Assembly (NCBI GenBank): GCA_951406725.2
Contig: OX597825.1
Coordinates: 43,710,001-43,774,000, forward strand
DNA: 64,000 nt
From: Octopus vulgaris
Taxonomy: Eukaryota
Direction: 5' to 3'
The translations under genes and the position numbers were made by a program. A model generated the notes under the pieces. It was given only the letters and a program-made list of their open reading frames with translations, did no database searches and had not been told where the DNA came from. The stretch's first letter is position 1. Every line of letters starts with the position of its first letter. Positions 4,436 through 37,375 of this stretch are shown here, in pieces.

Positions 4436-5689
4436 ATGGGCATTTAACTCAATTCTTACCTAAACACATGCATAAATTAATGTAGGTGTCGATGAAATAT
4501 AACTAATACTTATATCTGTTAATTGATCTACTTTCTATACTGATCAGCACAGCATGTACAAGATATATCACCGTCACATACATACAGATTTATAAGTGAA
4601 AGCGATGAGAAATAAACTGTTCACAGGCTTTTTTGTTGTTTTGTTCTTTTTTTGTCTTTTTAGTGTGAGGTGGGGGTGGTTTCCCTGTCAAGTACATAAA
4701 GAACTTTTAAGATGTGAATTGTCTGCACACGAGAAATGAACCTGGTTCGTGACGTTGTGGTACATAACTCTCTATATTTGCCTATCATCTTAAATACAAT
4801 AATATGAGTAATAAACCAAACAAACTTCAATTACTTATTTGTGTATTGTTCTTTTCATCTATTTTTATTTTCCTCTTTTCTTTTCACATCATTCTATTTT
4901 CTTATCTTTTTTGTTTTTGTTTTTTGTTTTGTTTTTTGGGGTTGTTTTTTTTTTCAAATTATCTGCTTGATGTTTTTCTTCAAACGATACCATTTTCATT
5001 CCATAAACATAAACGAAAGACCTGCAATTATCCGGAAGATAGAACCATATTTATGTATGTTTATGAACAAATTGCTATTCTGTCTATTCGATTTCTGCTC
5101 GGGGGTTGTTGATTCTTTATGGAAGAAACCATTGTACAGTCATCAAATCATTCGATCCCATCAATGACTGATTGCTTTTTTTTTAATGATTATCTAGCCA
5201 ATCTCAGTTCAGTTTCTTGAAATTCTTAGCCTCCAAGCCATCAAATAAACATTCCTATGTTTGTGACCCGTTCAAATGATCAAAGTATACGAAGAAGAGT
5301 TCAGGAAACACATATAGACATACACTAAATAAACACATTTGTATAAGTGTGTATAAATAGATACATACATTTATGTGTGTATGTGTGTGTGTGTGTACGC
5401 ACGCGCGTAAGACAACTAAAATAATAATTACATATCTACACAGTTTTTATTATGACAATCATTAATAAAGTATATAGTTAATTTAAACCGCCGTCTGACA
5501 TATTTTGCTGCATAGATATCTTGCTATGTAGTTTTTATTTGATCCTTGTTTCTTCGTCTTCATCTAGATTTTATCCTGGTTTAGAACGTGTCAATGCAGC
5601 TTTATTGCAGGTGTTGCCACTATTAAAGTTTGATGTAAACTCTTCCTTTTAAACTTTGATAATGGTAGCAACTTGAATAGATATATTTT

Positions 5690-6440
5690 TAAAACACACG
5701 ATCTATTGTCACTCCTGCTGCTCCTATTCTACCTCCTGTTCCACTTCTTGTTTCTGGGGATACCTCGCTTGCATGTGGCCCCGTACTCCACAGTGGTAGC
5801 AGATGGGGGGGGGGGTCTTCCCTTCCACTGCCATTCTTAGTTTGACCTCCTCCGGTAACAATCTTATCTACAATTTTATGCAGATCCGGGACACTGATTT
5901 CAACCGTCACCTCAAGGCCGTATCCAAACCAATTCACCTCTGTTGTCCTCATGACCTTCAGGACATTGGTTTCCTCCTCGGCGTTGAAGAGGATAGCCGC
6001 CACCAGCCACGTTTCTGGGGGCATTCTGCCAATCCTAATTCTGGCCGCACGTTTGCCACAGCAGGTTGACAGTAGTGCTCATTCATCCGACCAGTGGAGC
6101 ACTTTATTGCGTCTTCTTCGGTCGCAAACCGTACCTCCACTGTGCCGTACTTCTTGCCTCTGGTGTAGTACGTGGTAAGGTGCTTCACCTCCTTGAGGCA
6201 CCCCTCCATGGCTTCAATGGTTGCTATTTCCACCTTTTTGCTGATATTAGACAGTGTTATATAAACAACTGTTCTTTTCGCTGTTTCATCTAATATTTCT
6301 TTTGGTGGGGGTCAGTATCAGGCTGTTTCCTTCTTTAACAATTAGCTCGTTACCTTTTTTTTTAGTCTTCGTTCTTCGAGTTTTATTTCCTTTACTTGCG
6401 CAACGTCGCTATTTACATTCCATCCTGCTGCTGTAGCGTA
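5690..6440 (-). mobile_element. Solitary degraded Tx1-like ORF1 (RRM-like region plus CCHC knuckle), same family as the 25.5-36.7 kb array
   Basis: 'YYTRGKKYGTVEVRFATEEDA', 'PPETWLVAAIL', 'NWFGYGLE', 'PICYHCGVRGHMQARYP'; frameshifted. Confidence 0.8.
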
Positions 6441-7401
6441 GCTGAGGGCTGGTTGAATGTCCATAACTTCGTTGGTCACAAATTGCATGAAATGTATTTT
6501 GTTTGTTGGTGAGTATTTGTGTGTGTGTGTGTAAGCGCGCAGACGTGGTTAGATAGAATGTTTCTTGCAACCAATAGCGCTATTGGTCCCACTATTGAAT
6601 ACTTTTCTCCATGTAATATATTTAGTGACACATCTTGGAAAGGTGAATGTTTTTGTTTTGTTTTTGCGTTTTTCACCTTGCCAAAGCTGATGAATTAAAT
6701 ACCAGCTATATATTTAAGTTGACACAGTCAACGGTTAACCTCGTGTACAAATCTTGTGTAAGTGTCGATTTACAATTTAAAACACTCATTATCGTTCATA
6801 TCAGTTTATATACGACTTAGAGCTTTTCTACAGCAAACTTTCAGTAAAAGGAAGTAACCATTAAATGTTTTCACAGTATCAATTTATTTATAAACGGACA
6901 TGTATGCATGCATTAAGCATATGAGAGTGTGTTTTGAAAATATGTTATTTCTTAAATTGCTCTATCTTATCTAATGTTATTGCGTTTTATAAAAACTTCT
7001 GAAAACATACACATACAGCTCTCGATTAACTATTAAGCACAATAAGCACTTGCTTAGGGCATCAAGGGAAAGGGCACCAAAGAAGTAGTAAATGGTTTAT
7101 GATACAAGAGAAATCTTTTTAAACTTGCTAAGACATTTGAAGTGGTCGAGGTGATCATGGTATGATAGTGACATCATATAAAAGTGACCAATCATAAACA
7201 AAATTGGCAGAGTTTATGATTTATATTCGCGCTGCTAGGCATCATTTACCAGTCAGTTTTATGCGGTGGTGAATGGGGTTTGAGTCGGGTGTTTATTTCT
7301 CGGCAAATTTACAGAGATAACACAATAATTTATAATGAAAATACCAGATTATGACTCAAATGATTCCCTTACTCCCTATCTGCCTTACTCTCTCTTTCCC
7401 C

Positions 7402-12006: not shown

Positions 12007-12288
12007 TACTCTTTTACCTGTTTCAGTCATTTCACTGTTGTCATGCTGGAGCACCGCCTTTAGTCAAGCAAATCAACCCCAGAACTTATTCTTTGTGAGC
12101 CTAGTACTTATGCTATCGGTCACTTTTGCCGAACCGCTAAGTTACGGGGACGTAAACACACCAGCATTGGTTGTCAAGTGATGTTGGGGGGACAAACAGA
12201 CACACAAACATATATACATATATACGACGGGCTTCTTTCAGTTTCCGTCTACCAGATCCACTCACAAGGCTTTGGTCGGCCAGAGGCT
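12007..12288 (-). mobile_element. SINE family 1, 5'-truncated
   Basis: Shares 'tgtttcagtcatt...catgctggagcaccgcctttagtc...ttgccgaaccgctaag' with copies at 29503, 61862 and 62862. Confidence 0.85.
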
Positions 12289-12539: not shown

Positions 12540-12745
12540 TCCTTTCTACTACAGGTACAGGGTCTGAAATTTGGGGGGCTAGTCAACTGCATCGACCCCC
12601 GTGGTGAACTGGTACTTATTTTATCGAACCTGAAAAATGACAGGCAAAGTCGACCTTGGTGAAATTTGAACTCAGAACATAAAGATGGAAGAAATACTGT
12701 TAAGCATTTCGCCCGGTGTGCTAACGATTCTACCAGATCGCCGCT
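12540..12745 (-). mobile_element. SINE family 2 (tRNA head, Meta/MESC-like core)
   Basis: Reverse complement of the 49098 copy ('ggcgagctggc...ttcaaattccgcc...gtcgactttgcctttcatcc...gataaa.taagtaccag'). Confidence 0.85.
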
Positions 12746-12762
12746 TTAACAACAACAATAAC

Positions 12763-14456
<1,694 letters not shown>

Positions 14457-15526
14457 GGAGCTATTGATCTCGTACAGGATACCCAAACTGAACAACCCGA
14501 GGGAAGTACGGCAACTATTGTTGCAAAGAAGGTGAAATTGATGGCAATGAAAAAAGCGCACGAGCAATTGGCTGATAGGTGGGAGGAGAAACCTCTGCAC
14601 GGCAAATATGTGACCCGCAGCAAACAAGCTGATGTTGACCAGAAGCAAACCCATCAGTGGCTGCGGAGCTCAGGACTAAAAGCAGAGAGCGAAGGTTTCA
14701 TCCTGGCTGCTCAAGACCAAAGCCTATTAACCCGGAACTACCAGGCCAATGTGATGAAAAATGGAGCAGACCCAAAATGCCGATTCTGCAACGACATGAT
14801 TGAAACAGTGGACCACCTAATCTCTGGATGTAAAGTCTTAGCACCAGTGGAGTATAAATTAAGACATGACAGAGTTGGCCAATATCTCCACTGGCTAATA
14901 AGTCGGCATTACAATATCAAAACTGCCGACAAGTGGTATAATCACCACCCTGAGGCTGTAACTGAAGGAGAAAATGTAACCATTCTGTGGGACTTTCCAG
15001 TACATACAGACCGAACCATCAAGGCCAATAAACCAGATATTGTTGTGAAAGACCAAAACAATAAAGTTTGCTTATTGATCGACATGAGCATTCCCTGTGA
15101 TCATAATATCTCAGCGAAAGAGTTTGACAAGCTCAGAAAATATAAAGACCTACTCATTGAAATTGAGAAAATGTGGCATCTCAAGGCGGTTACAATACCA
15201 GTGATCGTAGGAGCACTAGGAATGATCAAGAAGGGAACTGAAAATTATATGAGAATGATCCCTGGCTTACCATCCCTGCAAGAAGTGCAAAAGATTGTCT
15301 TAACTGGTACATCACACGTATTGAGAAGAGCATTGTCGATGTGAGAACTGTTGCTGCTCATGTATTTTAATTTAACTTTAAAAAAAACAAAAAAACAAAA
15401 AAAAAATGAACGAACTACTGAGTTTGGTTTAATGGCCTACCAATATACACTATGAGTTTCTTTGCCCTAGGAGTCGGGAAGACACTCGGCAAGAAATGGA
15501 AGAAAATTTGAAAGAAGAAAAAAAAA

Positions 15527-22836: not shown

Positions 22837-24105
22837 TCTATCTATCTATCCGCTCAGTCGAAGTCGACTCTCGGTTAGTCGTTGGACCAGTGTCCTCCAG
22901 TCAGTTCTATCCTGGGCCGCTTCTTTCAGATTGGCTATGTCCATTCCGGTATCATTCTTGATGGTGTCAAGCCAGCGGGTTCTTGGTCGGCCTCTTCCTC
23001 TCTTGCCACTGACCATTCCGAGCATGATGTCCTTCTCCGGGGATTTTCTCTGCATAATATGACCGAAATATGCCAATCTATGCTTGGAAATCCTAGCTTC
23101 TAGCGACACTTTCGGCCTGATCTGCTTAAGAACTTCTCCATTGGTGAGCCTCACTGTCCATGGAATCCGTAAAAGTCTTCTCCAACACCAAAGCTCGAAT
23201 GCATTAATTCTCTTCTGGTCAACTTTCTTTAGTGTCCAGGTCTCGCATCCATATGTTGCTATTGGGAAGACAATTGCATTCACCAATCTGCATTTGGTAG
23301 CGAGTCTGATGTCTCTACTCTTCCAGACCCTGCTCATGCTGACCATTGCCTCTCTGCCTGGTACTATCCGCCGTCTTATTTCTGGGGTGCAGTCACCATC
23401 TCGATTTATTTTGGAGCCAAGGAAGATGAAATCATCAACCACTTCGATCTCTTCATTATCGATCTTGATGCTAAAGTTTGTTGTGGCTGCTGTTGACATG
23501 ATCTTCGTTTTCTTAACATTGAGGTACAGCCCAAATTTCTCACTCTCTTTCTTGACCAGCAGGACAAGATCCTCCAGATCCTTACCACTCTCCGCCAGCA
23601 GGGTTGTATCATCTGCATAGCGAAGGTTATTAATATTTCTTCCTCCAATCCTCACTCCAATGCTGCTATCCTCCAGGCCTGCATTCCTCATGACCTTTTC
23701 AGCGTACATGTTGAAGGCTACTGGTGACAGGATGCAACCTTGCCGAGTGCCTTTTCCAATCTCAAACCAATCAGTGTCGCCATATGGTGTCCGTACTGTA
23801 GCCTTTGGTTTTGATAGAGTGATCTAATAAGCTGGACAAGGTGTAAAGGTGTTCCCATTTCCTCCAGACATTTCCATAACTTGTCATGATCAATGTTGTC
23901 AAAGGCTTTGGAGTAATCGATGAAACACATGTACAGCTTCTTTTGGTATTCTCTTGCCTTTTCCATAATCCACCGTAGGTTGGCGATGTGATCGCGGGTG
24001 CCTCTTCCCTTTCTGAAACCAGCTTGCACCTCTGACAATTCTCTCTCAATAGTTGTGTTCAGGCGCTTCTGGATGATTTTAAGGAGAATTTTGTTTACAT
24101 GGGGG
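22837..24105 (-). mobile_element. Young 5'-truncated RTE-clade LINE with 14-bp TSD
   Basis: 'QAGFRKGRGTRDHI', 'FIDYSKAFD', 'NLRYADDT', 'FIFLGS', 'RGRGRPRTRW'; apparently one frameshift near 23805; (GATA)n tail; TSD atcagttattccta at 22823-22836 and 24106-24119. Confidence 0.95.
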
Positions 24106-24144
24106 ATCAGTTATTCCTAATCTTACTTTTTCAATTTGTTTATT

Positions 24145-25092: not shown

Positions 25093-25480
25093 TATGTCAG
25101 GCTGAATAAAAAGAAAGCAACGTTTTGAAACATGAGATTAATCACAATATATTTCAACACAGCGGAAATTTTATTCTTCAAAGTACCATTACAATCATCA
25201 CATTTTTGCTAACGAGTTACAAATTTGTTTATTCCGGTAACATAAGAATATGGAGTTCTGGAGCTGATGAACTCTTCGAACGCACTTTCAGCATCGGTTC
25301 GATTTTTGGACTTCTTTTCTCGCAGGAAACCATAAGGTGATTGAAAAAGTGATAGTCGGTAGGAGAATAAGGTATGGGGAATAAGCTGGGCGGGGAAGAA
25401 CCTCGTAGCTAAGTTCCTTCAACTTCTGGAGACTCATTAGTGAAACGTGTGGTCGATAATTGGCATGAAGAATGACACGA
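25093..25480 (-). mobile_element. Mariner 3' remnant
   Basis: Minus 'HANYRPHVSLMSLQKLKELSYEVLPRPAYSP...PTDYHFFNHL'. Confidence 0.8.
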
Positions 25481-28150
25481 GGAGGTCCGTAAGGTCCCTC
25501 CTACATTCCATCCCGCCGCCCCTTCCGAAAAGCAGGGCGAAATGCACCTTAAAGACCTTACACATCTCCTCGGGTTCCCTTGATCATTCTCAACGACCTT
25601 ATAGTGCTATTATGTCCACGTTGGGTCTCTATCACACAGGTCCATCTCGCAGCTTTGATTCCTTCCCGTCTCATTGCAAGTTGCTTAACCCTGAATACGC
25701 ATCCTTCTTTTTTAGTCTCGAGATGAAGGTTAAGCGCCATTCTCACAGCAAAAACTCGAGGTGCGGAGTCAGATTCCAGTGCTTCGTCTAAAGCCTTTCT
25801 ACTCAATTTTTCTTAGCCACTAACTCTTTGCTATACGTAATCCCTGTCTACGTAACTTATTTAAGTCCAGCCTACAAGTCACAAATTTGTAATCACTATA
25901 GATGACATAGTGAAATTGTGGACGACTAACTAGGTTTTTGTCTATTTCCCTAATTCCCTAATTAGAATTCTGTCTAAATAAGATCTAGATGACTCATCGC
26001 TATTAGTCCATGTCCAGAATGGAGCGTCTAGGACATCTAGTTTATACCTATCTACCAGCTGAAATGGACTAAGCAGATTACTGAAGCACGGGTTTCCCCT
26101 TCTAACAGTAGACGAACCAACGTAATCTACACGTGCATCGCAGATTACGTTAAATCACCTAACATTACTATGGTGTGAGACGTCCCAAGAAACTTCTCCA
26201 GGCCTAAAAAAAATCAGACTGTCCAGTTCACGAGGTAGCGTAGACAGCTACCAGCCTGAAGATCTTACCGCTGCTTAGTGCCACGATAGTTTATTTTTCT
26301 GAGCAGCACAGCAACGCCTCTTCCTCCTCCAGGTAGGCACGGAGAAATAACTTTCTCGTAGCCATTTAGGAGTGGGGGAAACCCCGTCGACTACCCAATC
26401 TGGACTCTGTGGCAACTGTAATATCCATTCTAAGCAACCTGAGGCCATTCAAGAAACGACGTTGTTTCCATTTTGCCCATCCCCCCAGGTCGCGTACAAT
26501 TAAACATCCAACATAAAGTGTATCCATAACGTTGTACTAACGGTTGGAAATGGGGTAGCACTACCATCTCATTCCTTTGATTTTTGATCCGGGGTTTGCC
26601 AGGTGTCGTTGACAAGGCTCTCAAACATTAATGGGGAAAAGTCTTTCCTCGGAGGGCCTATATCATTTTTTAATTGGTTTGCTAACCTATTATAGTTAGC
26701 CCTGTCTATATTATAAATTGCTATATTTGGGGTAAAGTTTTTTCCCTCAAGGGTTTTTGTGCTGTTGTCCGCATTAGGCACGTCTTTCAATTGCTGCAGT
26801 AGTGACTTGTTAGTCGTCACTACTGTAGTATAATCTATGTCTAGATGGGAGGGGAACATTTTGGGCTGGGATCTTTTGGTGTTTGTGTGTTCGGTTGGTT
26901 GCCGTTTTTTTTATGTTTTGTTGTGGGGCTAGTGGGGTTGGATTGGGCGATTTTTCCTTCCTTTTCTGGAGAAAATCTCCCACCTTTCTCCTTGGGCTTC
27001 CTCCATCTCCTCTTTTGTTTCATTTTCAGAAATTTGTTCAACGTTTCCTCTGCAGCTTCTGTTTGTTTTTCTGCAGGTGGGGGGAGTCACTGCTTTTTTG
27101 AGGGGAGGTTGGAACTCGGCCCTAATGTGACCTTTTTGACCACACATGTAGCAACGAGGCTTCTTCCCCTCTACTGTGACTCCCAGCTTAGTCTCTCCTA
27201 CCTGTATAGTGTCTATATTTTCTAAATCCGCCGGGGCAGCTTGTATAATCTTTTCCAGGCCTTGACCCGGCCAATTTTGCAGTCCCAACGCTGAGGCTTG
27301 GAGAATTGTAATCTTATCCTCCAAGCTGTTTATTATGGCTTCCACCAGCCTAGCGGGGCCTATTTCAGGTGGGATATCTCCTACCCTAATTTTGGAAGTT
27401 CGCCTTCCAAGATAAAAACGTAGGAGAACCACCTCCACCGCAGTTTTTAATGGTTCTGTTGATGCATGTTTTGCCTTTTCCTAGGTTTTGAAATGGATTT
27501 CTATTGTGTAATACTTCACTCCTCTTGTGACGTATGCCACGTCGTTTCAAACTGGACGGAGACGCAGCTCCACCGCCTCTTTACTTTTTGCTTTGGTCAT
27601 ATATGATTTGTATATCACGGTACACCGCAGTGCATTATGCGTCATTTCACTGGGAGGAGTAATCTCTGTTTCGCTCCCCTCCCTTTTCATTATACCTTTG
27701 TATCTTCCGAGCTTATTGCTTCCACAATCTATTGTCGTTTTTGAGACACCGGCCGCTGCTGCAAAATTGCTAGCTTTTCTTCCTTGAATAAATTCTTCTC
27801 CTGTCGGAATGCTATTTAAAACTGCGCTACCTTTTCCGCTTGTGATATCTTTCCATTCACTTGTACCAGGTTCACTACTGGTTTTGGCATTAATAGGTGA
27901 TTTGTCCATGTTTTTTTCTTTCTTTTTTCTTTTTTTTTTTTTTGAAAAATACAACAATATTTTTCCCCCTTCACACAAGGAGGGAAACTTTAACAAAGGA
28001 CTACCAAAAGCAGAGAAATAGGTGTTTAAAAAACACTCAACAAAAGTTCAAAAACGTAATAATTCAACAGTGCAAATTCAACAAATAAACCGCAAATTAT
28101 CCATAAAACTTACGCCAAACCTTTCGAACAACATTTACGAACAAGTCGGT
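25480..28150 (-). mobile_element. Array unit A: Tx1-like 5' UTR + ORF1 (~27910-26450) joined to a degraded ORF2 APE endonuclease fragment (~26410-25480)
   Basis: ORF1 'YLGRRTSKIRVGDIPPEI', 'PRCYMCGQKGHIRAEF'; EN 'MDITVATESRL', 'GRGVAVLLRK', 'FRLVAVYA', 'LGTSHTIVMLGD'. Confidence 0.8.
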
Positions 28151-30260
28151 CAGAGATGATTGTAACAACGAATTTTTTATTGCCCACAGGGGACTAAATA
28201 TAGAATAGACAGTACATAAACAAGACGGTACAATGAAAGTGGGGACACAAAAACGGATGGAAGGATGAATAAAAATAAAATAAAATAAAATGAGTAATGA
28301 AATGATGAGGCCGACCCCCACGTCCGGGTGCCTTACAATCTTACCCTTTTCTCGAGGTTTTATAACTTTTTCTCTTTTTTGAAGAAAAACATTGTAAAAT
28401 GTCTAAACCAAAGTCTTGTTTTAATTTAAATAGACTCACCATTGTGGGCATCTCGCTGGTATCTATATTCTTTGCCACCTATTTAATGTTCTCTTCTTAT
28501 TCTTTTAGTTTATCCACATACATAGGGTTGACTATAATACAATCCAAATTCCTGGACACCTCATAACAAAGATACGTGCTCACATTTATTGTCTTGTCCC
28601 AACGATGGATTTCCTTTATAAATTTGGCATTTGCTTCATCGTAAAAAACGATGTACTTCTCTTTTCCCTTTCTTTCCTTACAGGGCAGGGGTTGGGAAAT
28701 TTGGGGCTCCTTTGTGCATATGCTCATTTTTTCCGTGTCGGGTAGAACAGGGAGAGGGTTAGTGTCTGCTGGGGATCGGTGGGACAAAGTGAACTTGGAT
28801 GGGAGTCGAGTGGGCGTGGGATGGGTTTCATCCCTCACAGGCTGTGTCTTTCTCATTTTCTTTCATTTTTTTTCCACTTTTTCCCATCTGTCGTCGTCCT
28901 TATTTTCGTCTATCTTTGCTTCTGCACTGGTTACTGCCGAAGGTAGAGCTGCGGCTTCCTTCCTAGTCACAGGCTTGGCTTGTATTTCTGCGGGTGATAA
29001 AGGACAGTCTACCCTAACATGACTCTTTTGGCCACATTTGTAGCATCGAGGGATCCTGCCCTCCACTAAAACCCTCAATATCATGTCCTCAGCCGTTATA
29101 GTTTCTATCATATTTTCTAGGACTTCCAGGGCGACCTGGATCATCATATAGAAACCCTGCCCCTACCAATTCTTGTGGGTAGTACAAGCGGCTTGGAGGA
29201 CCACCACCTTCTCCAAGCCCATAGGATAGCGTCCAACAGCCAGGCTACGTCTATTTCTGGGGGTATGTCTTCTACTCTTATCCTGGAAGCACGTCTTCCA
29301 AGGTATATGGTTAGAAGCACCACCTCCTCCGTTTTTAAAAGGGTTGCCTGGCGGTCGATGCATCTCGGAACCGCACCTATACAGTTCCAGAGAATCGGCT
29401 TCTGTTGAGGTACACAATCTCTCTCCATATGGGTTTTAAAGCTTTTTCAATTTGTGCAACTGTCATCACCTTAGTTTTCCTGTTCTTTACTGAAAATGTT
29501 CTCTTTTACTCTTTTACTTGTTTCAGTCATTTGACTGCGGCCATGCTGGAGCACCACCTTTTAGTCGAGCAAATCGACCCCGGGACTTATTCTTTGTAAG
29601 CCCAATACTTATTCTATCGGCCTCTTTTGCCGAACCGCTAAGTAACGGGGATGTAAACACACCAGCATCGGTTGTCAAGCAATGCTAGGGGGCCAAACAC
29701 AGACACACAAACACACACATACATATATATATATATACATATATACGAGGGGTTCTTTCAGTTTCCGTCTACCAAATCCACTCACAAGGCATTGGTCGGC
29801 CCAGGGCTATAATAGAAGACACTTGCCCAAGATGCCACACAGTGGGACTGAACCCGGAACCATGTGGTTGGTTAGCAAGCTACTTACCACACAGCCACTC
29901 CTGTTCTGTAAACATTTCCTTTTTCACCTTGAATTGCTTCACATAGTATCCGTCTCTTCTTAGTATCTCTACCAATTTCTCCCAAATTAATTTGTTTTTG
30001 GTGGCTTCTGGCCACCATTGTGAAATCCATCTTCCTGTCTGCATTGTCCAGGGCTTTTATCAGTTCCTCCTCCGAAGAGAATTCTGAGGAGTTTAAGTTC
30101 TCATAGTTTATCATCATTTCTCTTTTTCAAACAGCGCTGCTCCTTTCAAATAGGGGGGACAGCGTTAACAAAACTGCCGTACGACAGCAAAAACAAGTGT
30201 GTCAAAAAACACAACACTTAACTATAATCTTTACACCTCACAAACATACACGAACAAGTC
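28151..30260 (-). mobile_element. Array unit B: ORF1-only Tx1-like element (SINE inserted)
   Basis: ORF1 ~30117-28430 with 'YLGRRASRIRVEDIPPEIDVAWL' and 'PRCYKCGQKSHVRVDCP'; then ~270-bp UTR, AATAAA and junction motif; no ORF2. Confidence 0.8.
29503..29901 (-). mobile_element. Near full-length SINE family 1 inserted in unit B ORF1, 6-bp TSD
   Basis: Head 'ggagtggctgtgtggtaag...ggttcagtccc'; TSD tgttct at 29497-29502 and 29902-29907; excision restores 'VYRTFSVKNRK'. Confidence 0.92.
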
Positions 30261-32564
30261 GAGATGATTGGAACATATTTCTATTATTTTCCACAAGATT
30301 ACATAAAGGGGGACATACATGGGCACTTACATACATAAATATGGTATTACCATCATAAAAACAAAATTATAATCAAATCGGATTTGAAATGGGATGATTA
30401 TGAAGTTAAAAGTTTATGAGTATGAAAATTCCACTGGAATTAAAGCTCTCGGGGATCTGATTAACCCGCCGGTTCCTTTTTTTCAATAAGGCTTATATTT
30501 TTATTTTTTCTCCTCTCTTTCGTTGCCTCTGACCGGCTACACTGATTCGGTTCCATTTGCCCGCAGCATCTTTACCACTGACATCCATCTTTTCGCAAAT
30601 ACTCTTTGAGACAGACATTTTCTTTCTCGACGGATCTTGCTTAGCAGGTGGTAGTTGAAACAACTAACCAACCCGCCTCCAGAGATAAAGTTGCCCATCT
30701 CAATTCCTCTTCCACGCGTCGTCCATACTGTATTTTTCAGTATGGCTACTACATAGAAAAAAACACGCTTCCCTTTCTTTATTTAAGGAGGAAGGCGGTA
30801 CGATCTTGATGATGGACTCAGCCGATAGCTGTACTCCTTCTGCATCCGACATCAGCTGTTCGACATAGGCAATCAGCCCCCTCAATTCTACACATTGCAC
30901 GAAGGTGTGTGCGGCAATTTCACTCTCCCGCCCGCAGCCCGGATACGTGGGAGGGACGCCAAAACTGTACCTTGACAGCCTCTCTCGAACCGGTAAAACC
31001 AAGTCAGGGATTTCTGAAAGTTATCCAGGTACTTCGGCCCGTATGTCCTTCCAAACAGGTTGATTAACTGGTCCCTATCGAAGCCTAGACTTTCCCTCGT
31101 GACGTCGTCAGACTTGTACTCTACCAACCCGCTATAGAAATCCGTATTGGTAGCCCCGTTGCCGGTATTACTCACCCGGGAGAGCGGAGTGAATGCTTAT
31201 CTGCACTCCAGCTGCCATTCTTACAATCTAGGTTTACGCCTGATCCATGGGCCTAAGTCCCACAAGGACGTTAATTGCGAGAAGAAAAACTTAACGTGAG
31301 GTGACCACACCTGTTCACCATCCAAGTAGAGCTGGAGATGTCTCATCCTCAACACAAATTTGCGCATCACCAGCCAAGGCATCCCTAACCCACCCTTTAA
31401 CGGTTTTTGGCAGCAGAGAAAGCACCTCACAAGCAGTGGTTTCCTTTTCCACTAAAAGCGGAATATGAGCCGTTCCAACTTGTTCAGCCACAACTTGGGA
31501 CAAGGCACGACGGTTAGGCGGTAGATTATTACCGATGCTATGAACCCTTGTGTAACTTCTTCCCTCCCTAGCAAGGATAATGTCCTCCCAGACCAGGTCT
31601 GGGTCAGAGCAGTTACCTTGCTTGCTCGCGCCAGTTTTTCTCCATCTGGAAATCTAGCCCAAACCAGACTCCGTGTAGTTTAACCTGGCCCTCCGTCCAA
31701 CGTCCAACGACGCTGTTGGGAGGCATCGACTTGCATCTCCAGGTGCCGAGTTGCAAGCCGACTGATTTTTTTCTTGGTTAATTTTTGCCCCTGCCACCGA
31801 TTCGTATCTTTTGATCGCGTCTTCTACACGAGGTAGCTGCCTTTCATCAGACACGTACGCCGTCGCTCCTCTGACATCATCCGCGTACGCCGTCGCTCCT
31901 CAGATTGACCCCCGCGGCCCCCAGACTTCGCAGCGGTGGCTCAAGAGCCAATACATATAGAAGCGGGGACAGGGGTCAAACCTGGCGAACTGAACGTTCG
32001 ATTGCGAACGGATTCTAGAAGAAACTGTTCACTCGGACAACGGACTCGATACATAGCGCTGATCCAACCACGGAAAGTCGGGCCGCCAGATACCGGTGGC
32101 CAAACCTATCGAAGGCATTAGACTGGTACAAATTCACCAGTGTCCCACCCTTGCTAGGAACTTTACTAACCCACTCTATGGTGTAGCGGATGCGGTGAAG
32201 GTTGTCGTGTATCGTCTTTCCTGGGATGGCGCATGTTTGCGCTTCTCCCACTAGGTCGCTCACGACAAGCCTCACTCTCTTGGCTAATACCTTGGCCAAA
32301 ATCTTTAACTCTATGTTTAGCAGAGTTATGGGCCTAAATTATTAATGATATCCCCCTTGTTTGGGTCCTTCTCCCGGCATGGCTTGTTCTGGAGAACAAT
32401 TCATTTTTTCTTCAAGTCTCTTTGCCCCTAAATAGGGAAGAGAAAAACAAACAAAGACACAGGCCCGCAGGTAAATCAGCAATATTCAGCAACAGTAACA
32501 GTATTCCACATAATTCAACAATAAGCGCAAAGCCTTTACACAAAAATCACGACTAACTCAATCA
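30261..32564 (-). mobile_element. Array unit C: 5' UTR and first ORF1 codons fused to degraded Tx1-like RT, CCHC and 3' UTR
   Basis: 'KDPNKGDIINN.RPITLLNIELKILAKVLAKR', 'LVNLYQSNAFDR', 'AYADD', 'LKGGLGMPWL', 'YPGCGRESEIAAHTFVQC'. Confidence 0.88.
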
Positions 32565-34276
32565 GAGATGATTGGAACATATCTCTTTATTGGCCACTTA
32601 GGGCCTTCCATAGAAGGGACAGTACAAGAACAGACAAAACAATACAAAGTGGGGACATAAAGCACAAAATGAGTGGATGAGTATGAACTTATATAATAAT
32701 GGGCGTGAAACGGCCACCTGAGCCCCACTCTCGCGTAGTTACATTTAACTGTTTTTTAATCATTTTTTATCGTATAAAATTTTACTCACTTCGTATTACC
32801 AGTTCATGTATGGCATTAAGTCCTCATAATCCACGACCGGAGGTCATCGTACTCCACCTCCAATCCCAATGTGAACCAAACAATTCCTTAATTTGGCATC
32901 TCTTTCTTTGTCTATTAATAAGCCTTTGGTATTCTCAGAATGATCCTCAGTCGGCAATTTCACTCTGATAATCGATTTGAATTTGGTGATGTTATGTTCA
33001 ATTGCCGTTCTTTGGGAATATGTCATGATTGTGTACTTTGTTTTTACGGGGGGTTGTGTCTGTCTGCATTTGTATCTGCTTTTCTACGTGGTGAGCTAGG
33101 GCTATCTGGGACGGTTTCTTTTTTTCACTGGTGGTGATGTATGCTATGTGGGCGTATCTAATATGTTATGTGTTTTTTGTAGTGTCTGCAGTTTTGTTAT
33201 TTCTCCTCTTTTTCTTAGAGCTTTTCGGGGATGAATTTGTTGTTACATTTCTTTTTCTTTTGGGAACTTCGATAAATTCTTCCTCCTCTGTCTCATCCAT
33301 ACTCTCCTCCTGGGCTGGGGCTGTTGTCTCAGTACTCCTACTTGGTTCATTCTGATTTTCCGTTGTTTCATTACTTATCTGGGAGCACTTTATTTTAATG
33401 TGCTCCTTTACACCACAATGGTAATAGGTGGGCGGTCTTCCCTCTACCGCCACTGTCAATTTTCTATCTTCTGGTAGTAGCACTCCTTCCGTTACTTCCA
33501 GTCTTGTTGGGTAGCCTGGATAACCATTTCCAGGCCGTAACCCCAGCAATTCAATTTTTTTCATTCTTGCTACTTGTACGATCTTCGTATCTTCTCGGGT
33601 TCCATACATCACGGCTGCTACCAGCCACGCTTCTTCAATCTCGGGTGGCACCCTGTCGATCCTAATTCTAACGACTCATCTGCTGCAGTAGATCGGCAGG
33701 GGCACCCATTCATGTGACCTAAGTGGTACAGTTGAATGATTTATTGCCTCTTCTTCAGTGACAGACCTCACTTCCACTGTGCCATATCTTCCTCTTCTAG
33801 TGTAAAATATCACGATGTTTTTTGTCTCTTCCAAACATTTCTTGATGGCCTCATCTGCTGCCATCTCGATCTTCTTGCTGGTTAAAGACAACGTTCTGTA
33901 GAACACTGTCCTCTTTTTTGTATTGTTGGTTACTTCTTCCGGAGGATCTCAACCTTAAATTTGACGCTTCCTTCTGGAACAGTTCTTTGTAGTTCTCCGA
34001 TTTCCCATGATCAATATCGACCTCTAGCATCTTCAGCGAATTCGTTGCGGGGGTACGACTTCCCGCCGCCGAAGCATAGCTCCCGACATTGGCTTGTTCT
34101 TGTGAACAATTCATCTTTTTTATCAAATCTCTTTATCCCTAAATGGGGAAAAGAAAAACAAACAATAACACAGGGCCGCAGGCGATACAGCAGCAATATA
34201 CAGCAACAGCATCAATATTCAACAATAGTAACAGTTTTCCGCACAAAGCCTTCAAACAAAAATCACGACTAACTCA
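32565..34276 (-). mobile_element. Array unit D: ORF1-only Tx1-like element (~1.7 kb)
   Basis: 'YTRRGRYGTVEVRSVTEEEA', 'PPEIEEAWLVAA', 'PTYYHCGVKEHIKIKC', C-terminal 'LGLEVEY...PPVVDYEDLMPY', then UTR. Confidence 0.85.
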
Positions 34277-35962
34277 GAGATGACTGGAACAAATTTCTTT
34301 ATTCTGCTATAAAGGCGTTACATAGAGGAGACAGCACAAGGACAGACAGAACTATTCAAGTGGGGACAAAAACATGAAACGAATGAAAAGTGAAATTATA
34401 CCAAAATGAGGGTGTAATGTCCACTGGAGCCCCACTCTCGGGTGGTTACATTTAACTGGTTTTTTTAAAGTTTTTTTTATCTTGTGCTATAATCATAGAA
34501 TGATCTTACTTTGTATGGCGTTAAGTCGTCATAGTCAACGACCGGAGGTAAGGTACCGTACTCCACCTCCGGTCCCAAAGGGTCAATGTTCGATCCTTTT
34601 AATTTTTGGTATCCTTCTACGTCGGTTAAGACACCTTTCCTGTTTTCCTCCGCTGGGAATTTTATTCTCATTGCCAACTTATTTTCGCAATCCTAATTTC
34701 TATTGATGTACTTTTTTATATGTCATGATATATGCTCTTTGTTTTCTGGTGGTTTTGACGGGCTGTGTATTGTCTGCAATTCTGGTTGGAATCCTGTCTG
34801 GTTAACTAGGACTATGTGGGGTGATATCTCTTTTTTTTGTGGGGCTTGTGGTGGTAATGTGTGCTATGTGAATTTATCTGTGTGTCTCGTCTTCCATATT
34901 GCACTCTTCTTTTTTTCTTTATGTTGTTCTTCTGAGGCAAAACCGTTATTTTACCTCTCTTTCTCTTTGGAACCTCAGTAAATCCTCCCTCCTCTGGTTC
35001 CTCTGTGTTTTCTTCGATTGTTAGGGCTGCCCTCTCGATACTTTCTTTTAACTCGGGGCACTTTACTTTCATGTGCCCCTTCTCTCCATAGTGGTAGCAG
35101 GTGTGCGGTCGGCCCTCACTATCATTCTCAATTTCCTATCTTCTGGCAACAGTATCTCCTCCGATATAGAGTTTAAATCTTGGGTGGCCTGGATCACCAT
35201 TTCCAGGCCATAACCCAACCAATTCACATTTTTAGTCTTTGTCACTTGCAAAATTCTGGTTTCCTTTGTATCGTAGATTATAGCTGCCACCAGCCACGCC
35301 TCTTCTATTTCAGGAGGCACCCTGCCAACCCTGATCCTTGCGACCCCTTTTGCCGCAATAGGTTGGCAGGAGTACCCATTCCTCTGACCTTAAAGGCACA
35401 GTGGAGTGGATGAGTGACTCTTCTTCAGTGGCGAACCTCACCTCCACTGTATCGTACCTTCTTCCTCGGGTGTAAAATGTTATTGTATTCTTTATACTCT
35501 CCATGCACTTTTCTATGGCTTCCTCTACCGCCATTTCTATCTTTTTGCTGGTTAAGGACAGCGTTCTATAGAAAACTGTCCTTTTACCCATGCTTTTAGT
35601 TACTTCTTCCGGAGGAGTCAGCCCTAGACTTTCCCCCTTCCTTCTGGAGCAGCTCCCTGTGTCTTGCTAGCTTCTCGAGGGCTATTGCCACCTCTCGTAC
35701 CTCCAATGTGCTCGTAGCGCTGGTCGTGCGACTACCCGCCGCCGACACAAAGCTCCCGACGTGTTCCTATGAATACTCCATTTCAAAATTCTTTAGCCCA
35801 AACTGAGGAAAAGAAAAACAAACAAAAACCACAAGCCCGTATGCGAAACAGCAATAAGAATCCAACGGTAACAATCTCTAAGAATGGTAACAATAATAAG
35901 AGTATTTCGAGGAACGTAACAGTAGGCACGCAGCCGCAAACAAAATCACACTAGCAAGCTAG
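34277..35962 (-). mobile_element. Array unit E: ORF1-only Tx1-like element (~1.7 kb)
   Basis: 'YTRGRRYDTVEVRFATEEES', 'PPEIEEAWLVAA', 'TCYHYGEKGHMKVKCP', 'PLGPEVEYGTLPPVVDYDDLTPY', then UTR. Confidence 0.85.
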
Positions 35963-36615
35963 GAGGTGATTGGAACATTTTCTTTATTCGCCATAAAGGC
36001 GTAACATAGAAGGGATGGCACAAGGACAGACAATACAAGTTGTGACAAAATACAAAACTATGAATGAAATGAATATACAAAATGAGGATGAACGTCTTAT
36101 CTGAACCCCACTCTCAGGCAGTCACGTTTTACTGTTAATTATCTGTTAGTTCAACAATTTTCAATCGTTTAAAACAATTTTACTTTTTTTTTTACTTTAC
36201 CATACAAAATATGGCATAAGTTCACTATATTCTACCACCGGTGGGGAGGGAATCAAACCTCACTTCTAACCCCAGTTTATCTATACCGGATTTGAATGTT
36301 TCTTTTAATGCTGCGTGTCTTTGTTTATCAATTAAGATGCATTTTGTGTCTGATGCGTAGTCTAATAATGTTTTTTTAATTTTGTAATTTTTTTCTATGG
36401 ATGTCATTAAGTATGCTATCTGTTTTGGCGGGGTTTGACTGTGTTGTGTGTCTGCATGTGGATGCTTGGTAGGAGATTCTGGGCAGTTTTTTGAGGGGAT
36501 GATAGCAGTGATGTGCTGTATAAGTGCGTTGTTCTCTAGGGTTGTCTGTATTTCGTTTGTCGGTGTGTCTTGTTTTTGTGCGCATCTCTTCTTATTTTCA
36601 CATTGTTGTGTGTGC

Positions 36616-36680
<65 letters not shown>

Positions 36681-36750
36681 TGTGGTTTTTTTGTGTTTTT
36701 TTTATGATGTATTGGTTTGTTCTCTTTTCCTTCGGAATCTTTTTGGTATG
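35963..36750 (-). mobile_element. Array unit F: 5'-truncated ORF1-only element
   Basis: 'DTKCILIDKQRHAAL...KLGLEVRFDSLP/PVVEYSELMPY', followed by the shared UTR; (TG)n inside; abuts a Tc1 remnant. Confidence 0.8.
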
Positions 36751-36764
36751 TTCGTTTTAACTCC

Positions 36765-37375
36765 GTTAAACGTTCAGTAATATTGAGATCTGGGGACCAT
36801 GGTGGCCAAATAAGATGTTCAACTTCACTAGAATGTTCCTCGTGCCATTCAGTAACAACATAGCTGCTTGGTGCATTATCATCCTAAAAGATTGCGTTTC
36901 CCTCCGGAAACAGTTCTGCAACCATAGGATGAATTTGATCGGAAAAATGCTTAAATAGTCTTGACTATTAATTTTGCCATGAAGGGAAACCATTGAGCCG
37001 GCGGATTTCCAAGATATAGCGCCCCCAGATCACCACAACTGTTTAACAGTTGGAAGAAGGCAGACTGGGCCAAATTCTTCTTTTGGCTGTCTCCACACAT
37101 ATACTCGGCCGGTGGTCGGAAATAAGGTAAAGGTTGACTCGTCCAAGAAATAACATTCTTCCACTGCTCTAGGGACCAATTCTGTAGGTTTTTATTCTAT
37201 TCTCAACGCTTTGCAATGTTTGTTTTTGAAAGTGGTGGTTTTCTGATTGCAGCCCTCCTGTGAAATCCGGTTTGGTGTAGCTCATGGCGAACAGTTTTTG
37301 TGGAAACTGAGTTTGTCATTAAGCTCTGCAGTAATTTTGGGAGCTGTAGTTTTGTGATCCTTTCTAACAATTCTT
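36765..37375 (-). mobile_element. Tc1-like transposase remnant
   Basis: 'MVSLHGKINSQDYLSI', 'AIF*DDNAP', 'HLIWPPWSPDLNITE'. Confidence 0.85.

Follow-up and report, generated by a model that had tools for sequence, protein, structure and literature searches.

The locus described here lies in a 64,000-nucleotide (nt) stretch of the Octopus vulgaris genome (contig OX597825.1, positions 43,710,001 to 43,774,000 of the forward strand), referred to below as the window. It holds a chain of six non-LTR retroelement units (LTR, long terminal repeat), A to F, arranged head to tail on the minus strand between 25.5 and 36.8 kb of the window; unit lengths are counted from junction to junction. According to the original prediction, four of these units (B, D, E and F) represent one family of non-autonomous elements that carry the first open reading frame (ORF1) of a long interspersed nuclear element (LINE) and lack the second (ORF2), with its endonuclease and reverse transcriptase (RT).

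Units B (28153..30260, 2,108 nt), D (32565..34276, 1,712 nt) and E (34277..35962, 1,686 nt) each consist of a 5′ untranslated region (UTR), one broken ORF1 and a 3′ UTR, all on the minus strand. Their predicted size of about 1.7 kb stands, as B measures 1,704 nt without the high-copy repeat inserted in its ORF1 (approximate ends 29502-29905), which we take to be a short interspersed nuclear element (SINE). ORF1 extends over approximately 30117-28341 in B, 34114-32796 in D and 35781-34477 in E, and is followed by 3′ UTRs at 28168-28340 (with an AATAAA signal), 32580-32795 and 34292-34476, respectively. Unit F (35963..36765) is a 3′ part on the same strand, comprising the ORF1 linker and C-terminal domain with a stop at 36197 and a 3′ UTR at 35978-36196; it contains a (CA)n tract and is cut at approximately 36765 by a Tc1-type fragment, so that its 5′ half is missing and only the join of ORF1 end and 3′ UTR is visible. 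Units D, E and F are colinear through the ORF1 end and 3′ UTR, and approximately 68–73% alike. The 3′ UTRs are shorter than the 250–300 nt first proposed, the distance from stop to junction being 173 (B), 216 (D), 185 (E) and 219 nt (F). The copies are dead, as had been claimed: the ORF1s are broken by stops and frameshifts, and in B also by the SINE insertion. A possible +1 frameshift common to D and E before the first RRM was rejected after inspection by eye, as its positions differ between the two.

The absence of ORF2 was confirmed by ORF2 searches, which found neither endonuclease nor RT sequence between ORF1 and the 3′ UTR of B, D and E; truncated F ends alike. A tblastn search of the whole window with a 912-residue ORF2 relative (P0004) matched unit A (residues 85–181), unit C (residues 290–906), positions 400-1282 and an RTE-type piece at 23.8–24.1 kb, and gave no match in B, D, E or F. 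When the ORF2 frames of A and C were compared with B, D, E, F and a solo fragment, G, three matches at E ≤ 1 were returned (best E 0.021), in a low-complexity linker. Since the C-terminal end of ORF1 is complete and only 173–219 nt separate it from the junction motif (the 3′ UTR of C has 261 nt), ORF2 is gone almost from stop to stop. The units have the ORF1-present bipartite structure, in which an ORF1 part is joined to the 3′ part of a LINE and ORF2 is absent. As a separate observation, positions 400-1282 of the window hold two related ORF2 pieces, 37–67% to P0004, with an internal deletion and without the shared tail.

The two remaining units carry parts of ORF2. Unit A (25476..28152, minus strand) is a remnant of autonomous type. 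It carries ORF1 (approximately 27910-26569) and, behind it, the endonuclease portion of ORF2; RT and 3′ end were lost at a mariner-type fragment, and the endonuclease motifs were recognised by eye, a profile search having given no match. Unit C (30261..32564, minus strand, 2,304 nt) has approximately 12 ORF1 codons fused near 32369 to ORF2, which runs from the start of the RT through to the end of ORF2. It features a 5′ end like that of D and a 261-nt 3′ UTR, and lacks the endonuclease and the body of ORF1; it is either a chimera, a deletion spanning two neighbouring units, or an RT-only family.

The predicted ORF1 consists of two RRM-type domains, a CCHC knuckle and a C-terminal domain, the RRM and CCHC parts making it a type I ORF1, a kind that has been tied to Tx1-type elements in non-mammalian animals (in the account of PMC5203782). 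The CX2CX4HX4C knuckle that had been described for these units is intact only in B (Pfam zf-CCHC, E 3e-4), and in D and E one cysteine each is replaced by tyrosine. A C-terminal profile was built on the final 85 residues of four database proteins. It matches the ORF1 termini of D (iE 4e-18), E (1e-11) and F (5e-10), and ORF1 is therefore whole at its end in these units. A second profile, from two proteins, matches unit A. Compared with the first C-terminal set, the ORF1 ends of the other two units score weakly, B being reached by 35 of 2,000 shuffles and A by 3 of 2,000. This domain of about 85 residues occurs in two versions among database proteins: that of P0009, P0052, P0075 and P0132 fits D, E and F, and that of P0016, P0053 and P0108 fits the ORF2-bearing unit A. 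Neither version has a match in Pfam, and the best Atlas score (0.76) offers no lead.

The two RRM-type domains rest on a predicted model of the intact relative P0052, built from 68 sequences, with a mean pLDDT (predicted local distance difference test score) of 73 and values above 84 at residues 31–220. The model shows two alpha/beta domains. Its best Foldseek matches are tandem-RRM proteins, at E 2.7e-4 and weaker and a template modelling (TM) score of 0.15 by query, and a VIA search returned RRM- and ACT-like folds at Z 6–8 (best Z 8.2), which is a common arrangement. The core of ORF1 scored 0.87 in Atlas against ZCCHC3-type RNA-binding domains, which is taken as a lead only. No Transposase_22 match was obtained with 18 window pieces or eight ORF1 relatives.

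With a profile built from nine window pieces, the number of proteins retrieved (50% clusters) was 525 at a threshold of E ≤ 0.001 and 136 at one of 1e-10; some of the top matches are multi-knuckle proteins aligned by the knuckle alone. A protein search with one piece of unit D gave no match, and a scan of JGI metagenomes gave 306 pattern matches, of which none was confirmed. Named relatives of the protein occur in Octopus bimaculoides, O. sinensis, O. vulgaris and Argonauta hians. Three octopus gene models (P0001, P0002 and P0017) either join the ORF1 core with a WD40 protein or with an ISXO2-like transposase, or bear the name EPM2A-interacting 1-like; they are likely annotation artefacts, the alternative being exonisation.

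The UTRs of D and E are 77% alike at both ends, while approximately 60% of silent sites differ. The likeness of the 3′ UTRs among D, E and F, between B and D and between B and E was reached by none of 200 shuffles; that of B and F is weaker (1/200). The 3′ UTR of B is closer to those of D and E (z-scores 9–11) than to that of C (z 3.5), and its 5′ UTR resembles that of A (z 6.6). The two ends of D differ in this respect: its 3′ UTR resembles that of E (z 32) much more strongly than that of C (z 4), but its 5′ end is 84% like that of C as against 77% for E. The short sequence motifs said to be shared by the UTRs are present in exact form in D and E; B and F retain them only in part.

The ORF1 core of D and E was compared over 179 codons in hand-picked in-frame blocks. 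Differences at the three codon positions number 27, 30 and 85, giving dN (nonsynonymous) 0.18, dS (synonymous) 1.30 and a ratio of 0.13; the dN/dS test that had been proposed for ORF1 thus gave a value well below 1. A plain nucleotide alignment places 168 of 360 mismatches at third positions (p = 1e-7), the signal being driven by the two RRM regions. Fragment G (window 5650-6480), a D/E-type ORF1 extending from the N-terminus to the knuckle with no tail or junction motif nearby, has also diverged under selection (E/G dN/dS 0.30). ORF1 has accordingly been under selection, although the D/E ratio alone cannot prove that ORF2 was absent throughout. Because the silent sites are near saturation and the junction motifs nearly uniform, D and E were already distinct lineages under selection long before arriving at this site.

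The relationships of the units were analysed in an unrooted tree of ORF1 cores, comprising 26 sequences (five window units and 21 database proteins chosen for length). Units D and E and fragment G are split from A and B with support 100/99, and a constraint placing B, D and E together was rejected (approximately unbiased test, p 9e-5; the group had been named on structure and was tested after the tree had been seen). The units are therefore not one single family, as first proposed, because the ORF1 of B groups with the unit A side, apart from D and E. Since B lies in a different ORF1 clade from D and E, either ORF2 would have been lost twice, or an ORF1 core would have been swapped onto an ORF1-only backbone.

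As for the wider affinity of the units, the nearest match of P0004 in the PDB is the L1 ORF2 protein (E 3e-50, versus 4e-24 for R2), and P0004 carries RVT_1 and zf-RVT domains. The characters of the L1 superfamily are found, namely an APE endonuclease, an L1-type RT and a type I ORF1, the RRM fold of the last being predicted with weak scores. The units thus belong to the L1 superfamily, and probably to the Tx1 clade; Tx1 is placed in the L1 group by PMC3747384. Units A and C themselves do not qualify as the Tx1-like helper that they had been proposed to represent, A being without RT and 3′ end and C without endonuclease and with only about 12 codons of ORF1. The RT-bearing unit C shares the junction motif and shows a weak 3′ UTR likeness to the other units, and a helper of its ORF2 type is likely.

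Copies elsewhere in the genome were sought by comparing public contigs with units D to F, with relatives at least 80% alike; the results refer to the best 32 of 882 pieces, 15 of 42 joints and 24 of 550 loose ends. Short matches in runs X12 and X14, which may be RNA, were set aside. One contig from another locus, contig 17 of run X3 (1,946 nt, at single-copy depth), carries a D-like 3′ UTR (25 differences in approximately 165 nt) and a D-like ORF1 end (21 in approximately 107 nt), the spacer between the two matches being 151 letters as compared with 129 in D. It makes a real but thin case for a second ORF1-only copy elsewhere in the genome. At least two F-like joints of undefined spacer length are also among those listed. 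Copies and candidate copies of the structure are thus four in the window, at least one contig with a known spacer, and at least two more joints. Joints leading from a 5′ end to a tail (35829 to 34340 in X3 and X5; 34094 to 32584, again in X3) are compatible with head-to-tail joins at other loci. The summed depth near the tail of E is 19,087, versus approximately 60 for single-copy contigs (X3), which hints at many related tails and does not give a copy number. The locus is represented under four organism labels. In one of them, organism C, a contig of run X7 covers positions 32283-33798 of the window, where unit D differs at 40 of 1,516 bases; beyond 33798 this contig carries about 400 nt that depart from the window, which may reflect a later insertion.

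The junctions between the units are formed by a 15-nt motif, TGTTCCAATCATCTC on the element strand. It is exact between C and B (30261..30275) and between D and C (32565..32579), and has one mismatch between B and A (28153..28167), where it is likely a duplicated target site, between E and D (34277..34291) and between F and E (35963..35977), always on the minus strand. Five sites with 0–1 mismatch compare with 0.01 expected and were reached in none of 100 shuffles; the motifs depart from the common form at 3 of 75 bases (approximately 4%), a uniformity far above that of any other part of the five families. Each motif lies 5–7 nt after an AATAAA-like signal, long poly(A) is absent and the next 5′ UTR starts directly; the bases behind the motif differ by family (TGA.., GAC.., CTAG). 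The five sites point to a sequence-specific target, common though not universal in the Tx1 clade. The GTTCC.ATCA core agrees at nine of ten bases with the SINEU-3 site of Tx1-Mar, as given in PMC4494074. A sequence that resembles the motif with three mismatches, located within a SINE at 12019-12033, was discarded as being at chance level (2.7 expected).

The array is internal, with other repeats flanking both sides. Its ends (25100-25475 and 36765-37300) are cut by different transposase fragments, presumably of Tc1/mariner type to judge by their motifs, and because both ends are lost no empty host site is visible. Neither Rfam at gathering level nor ARAGORN gave a match in the whole window; a search for the host of the junction site with Rfam at E ≤ 5 over 25.0–37.5 kb gave five chance-level matches, none of them at the junctions. 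Elsewhere in the window, an A/T-only tract of trinucleotide type extends over more than 1.5 kb (12670-14460; GC content 0.000 over 13001-14000). Pieces of other LINEs, which we take by their motifs to be RTE-like, lie at 14457-15344 and 22846-24110 and are fairly intact, with open frames of 295 and 325 amino acids.

Taken together, units B, D, E and F are best explained, with a probability of roughly 0.7, as dead copies of several old ORF1-only families of site-specific LINEs of the L1 superfamily, probably Tx1, which were likely moved in trans. Propagating ORF1-only families are favoured over chance deletions, as the original prediction had argued, in that ORF1 was under selection, the UTR is conserved and another copy in the genome shows the same join. 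Transcription of a unit would start in its own 5′ UTR or read through from the preceding unit, and the RNA would be coated and packaged by its own ORF1 protein, a role in keeping with the selection observed. The ORF2 protein of a helper would then recognise the common 3′ UTR, while the endonuclease would cut the 15-nt site, prime reverse transcription and duplicate the site, as the pattern of junctions suggests. Each insertion would leave a new landing site, so that different families pile up head to tail. The copies then decayed through the stops, frameshifts and SINE insertion seen here.

Several results weigh against this explanation. The window has no intact helper, and the likeness of the 3′ UTR of C to the others is weak (z 2–4, reached by 0–7 of 200 shuffles). 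A conserved 3′ UTR structure, sought in ten pieces, was not found: none of the ten folds more stably than shuffled sequence (z −1.2 to 0.5), and the consensus fold amounts to only −2.2 kcal/mol. The C-terminal domain of B has no match to the four-protein profile. Selection is weaker towards the C-terminus, with pN/pS (the corresponding ratio of proportions) of 0.49, 0.37 and 0.60 in hand-picked blocks of 45–48 codons and a third-position excess that is not significant in nucleotide alignments (p 0.12, 0.08 and 0.2); nor are the N-terminus (p 0.055) or the knuckle and linker (p 0.29) of D and E significant alone. Just one paralogous contig with a known spacer spans the join among the matches listed, which are not genome-wide counts. 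Finally, the D-like 5′ end of C is attached to an RT, which may indicate that ORF1s of the D type are in some elements accompanied by ORF2.

This last point leads to the alternative that each unit is a dead-end derivative of its own autonomous family, with ORF2 lost from stop to stop, for example by splicing or skipping, and that no ORF1-only family ever spread. The selection seen would then have acted in ORF2-bearing parents, on whose presence at that time the D/E ratio alone is silent, and the placement of B and D/E in different ORF1 clades is in agreement with such a history, as is unit C, which shows internal loss at this very locus and ties a D-like 5′ end to an RT. Yet D, E, F and contig 17 have the same join, and the ORF2 part of C is not the parent of D, because D resembles C more closely at its 5′ end but E much more closely in its 3′ UTR (z 32 versus z 4). 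To this may be added, as a weak point, that no loose end among the 24 of 550 listed leads from the ORF1 stop into new sequence. We consider this alternative unlikely, though it is the most probable of those discussed here.

The head-to-tail layout, the similar unit lengths and the colinearity of D, E and F at approximately 68–73% would also be expected if a single deleted LINE copy had been duplicated in place by unequal crossing-over and had then drifted neutrally. This is largely refuted, and hardly any weight is left to it: the third-position bias is strong, the junction motifs deviate by only 4% from the shared form, against nearly saturated silent sites, A and B belong to another ORF1 clade, and a copy exists elsewhere. 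Tandem duplication with drift is ruled out for D and E in particular because they are selected lineages with the same ORF1/3′ UTR join, which F also has. A further possibility accepts the ORF1-only families as real but takes the 15-nt motif to be borne by the element, at its 3′ or 5′ end, the arrays being in part read-through multimers rather than the product of single insertions that each duplicate the target. The gap between AATAAA and motif without poly(A), the family-specific bases after the motif and the loss of both array ends, which hides any empty host site, are compatible with this. It is nevertheless quite improbable, since no other part of the five families comes near the uniformity of the motif, and tandem, sequential insertion around a target-site duplication (TSD) has been described for SINEU-3 (PMC4494074).

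HeT-A of Drosophila, to which the organisation of the units was first likened, proves to be an analogue, a telomeric element of the Jockey clade, and three other systems are closer. HAL1 of mammals is likewise of the L1 superfamily, consists of 5′ UTR, ORF1 only and 3′ end, and arose more than once (as described in PMC5753468 and PMC5786205). The octopus units differ from it in their ORF1 with RRM and CCHC, fixed 15-nt site, tandem arrangement, lack of poly(A) and mollusc host, and their pieces and relatives have no ORF1 of the Transposase_22 type. TRE5-A.2 of Dictyostelium, another L1-superfamily element, is also without ORF2, targeted, and moved in trans by the ORF2 protein of TRE5-A.1; it is, however, described as a variant of its own helper, placed by position near tRNA genes (PMC5633606), whereas the octopus array brings together several deeply diverged families on one sequence site, with a close helper not seen. 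Tx1-Mar and SINEU-3 of crocodilians share a similar site core (GTTCC.ATCA), non-autonomous partners on a Tx1 site and tandem insertions around the TSD (PMC4494074), but SINEU is described as short and non-coding, and the octopus units code for ORF1.

Telomeric Jockey elements resemble the array in that ORF1-only and ORF2-bearing families are mixed head to tail (PMC13534243, PMC5786205), with repeated ORF2 loss and ORF1-only lineages founding new ones. HeT-A itself differs in its clade, its addition to chromosome ends and its length of several kb, as described there, the octopus units being 1.7-kb elements of the L1 superfamily; they are set apart from it by the L1-like RT of the partner, the internal array and the fixed junction motifs. 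HeT-A, HAL1 and Ag-Sponge are listed in PMC5786205 as ORF1-present non-autonomous LINEs from the Jockey, L1 and CR1 clades, Ag-Sponge being bipartite as well, but of CR1. Thus the octopus units work like HAL1 and HeT-A but belong to neither, and ORF1-only LINEs are already known in other clades. No ORF1-only Tx1 or cephalopod element was found in the literature, although Repbase Reports, subscription papers and the supplements of PMC4494074 may contain some.

According to PMC13534243, approximately 40% of families among Drosophila telomeric elements are ORF1-only, with repeated loss and ORF1-only clades, and the recurrent loss of ORF2 in Drosophila is described there as particular to telomeric elements. 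ORF1-only families that have long persisted in arrays which are internal and site-specific represent an independent case of ORF2 loss, and allow testing whether the capture of a helper's ORF2 by an RNA is aided by ORF1 made in cis, and whether array-building itself favours the loss of ORF2. They also matter for annotation, as relatives of the octopus ORF1 are filed as host genes in the protein sets of Octopus and Argonauta. More speculatively, and we regard this broader proposal as possible but doubtful, octopods may carry an old guild of ORF1-only parasites of site-specific Tx1 LINEs, in which ORF1 cores arose or were swapped more than once around one shared 3′ module, made up of a C-terminal domain in a version of their own and the 3′ UTR. 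If so, targeting a site that is regenerated by insertion, rather than telomere duty, would generally give rise to mixed head-to-tail arrays in which ORF1-only families abound, and the question posed by HeT-A, why ORF1 is kept and ORF2 dropped, would become testable away from chromosome ends.

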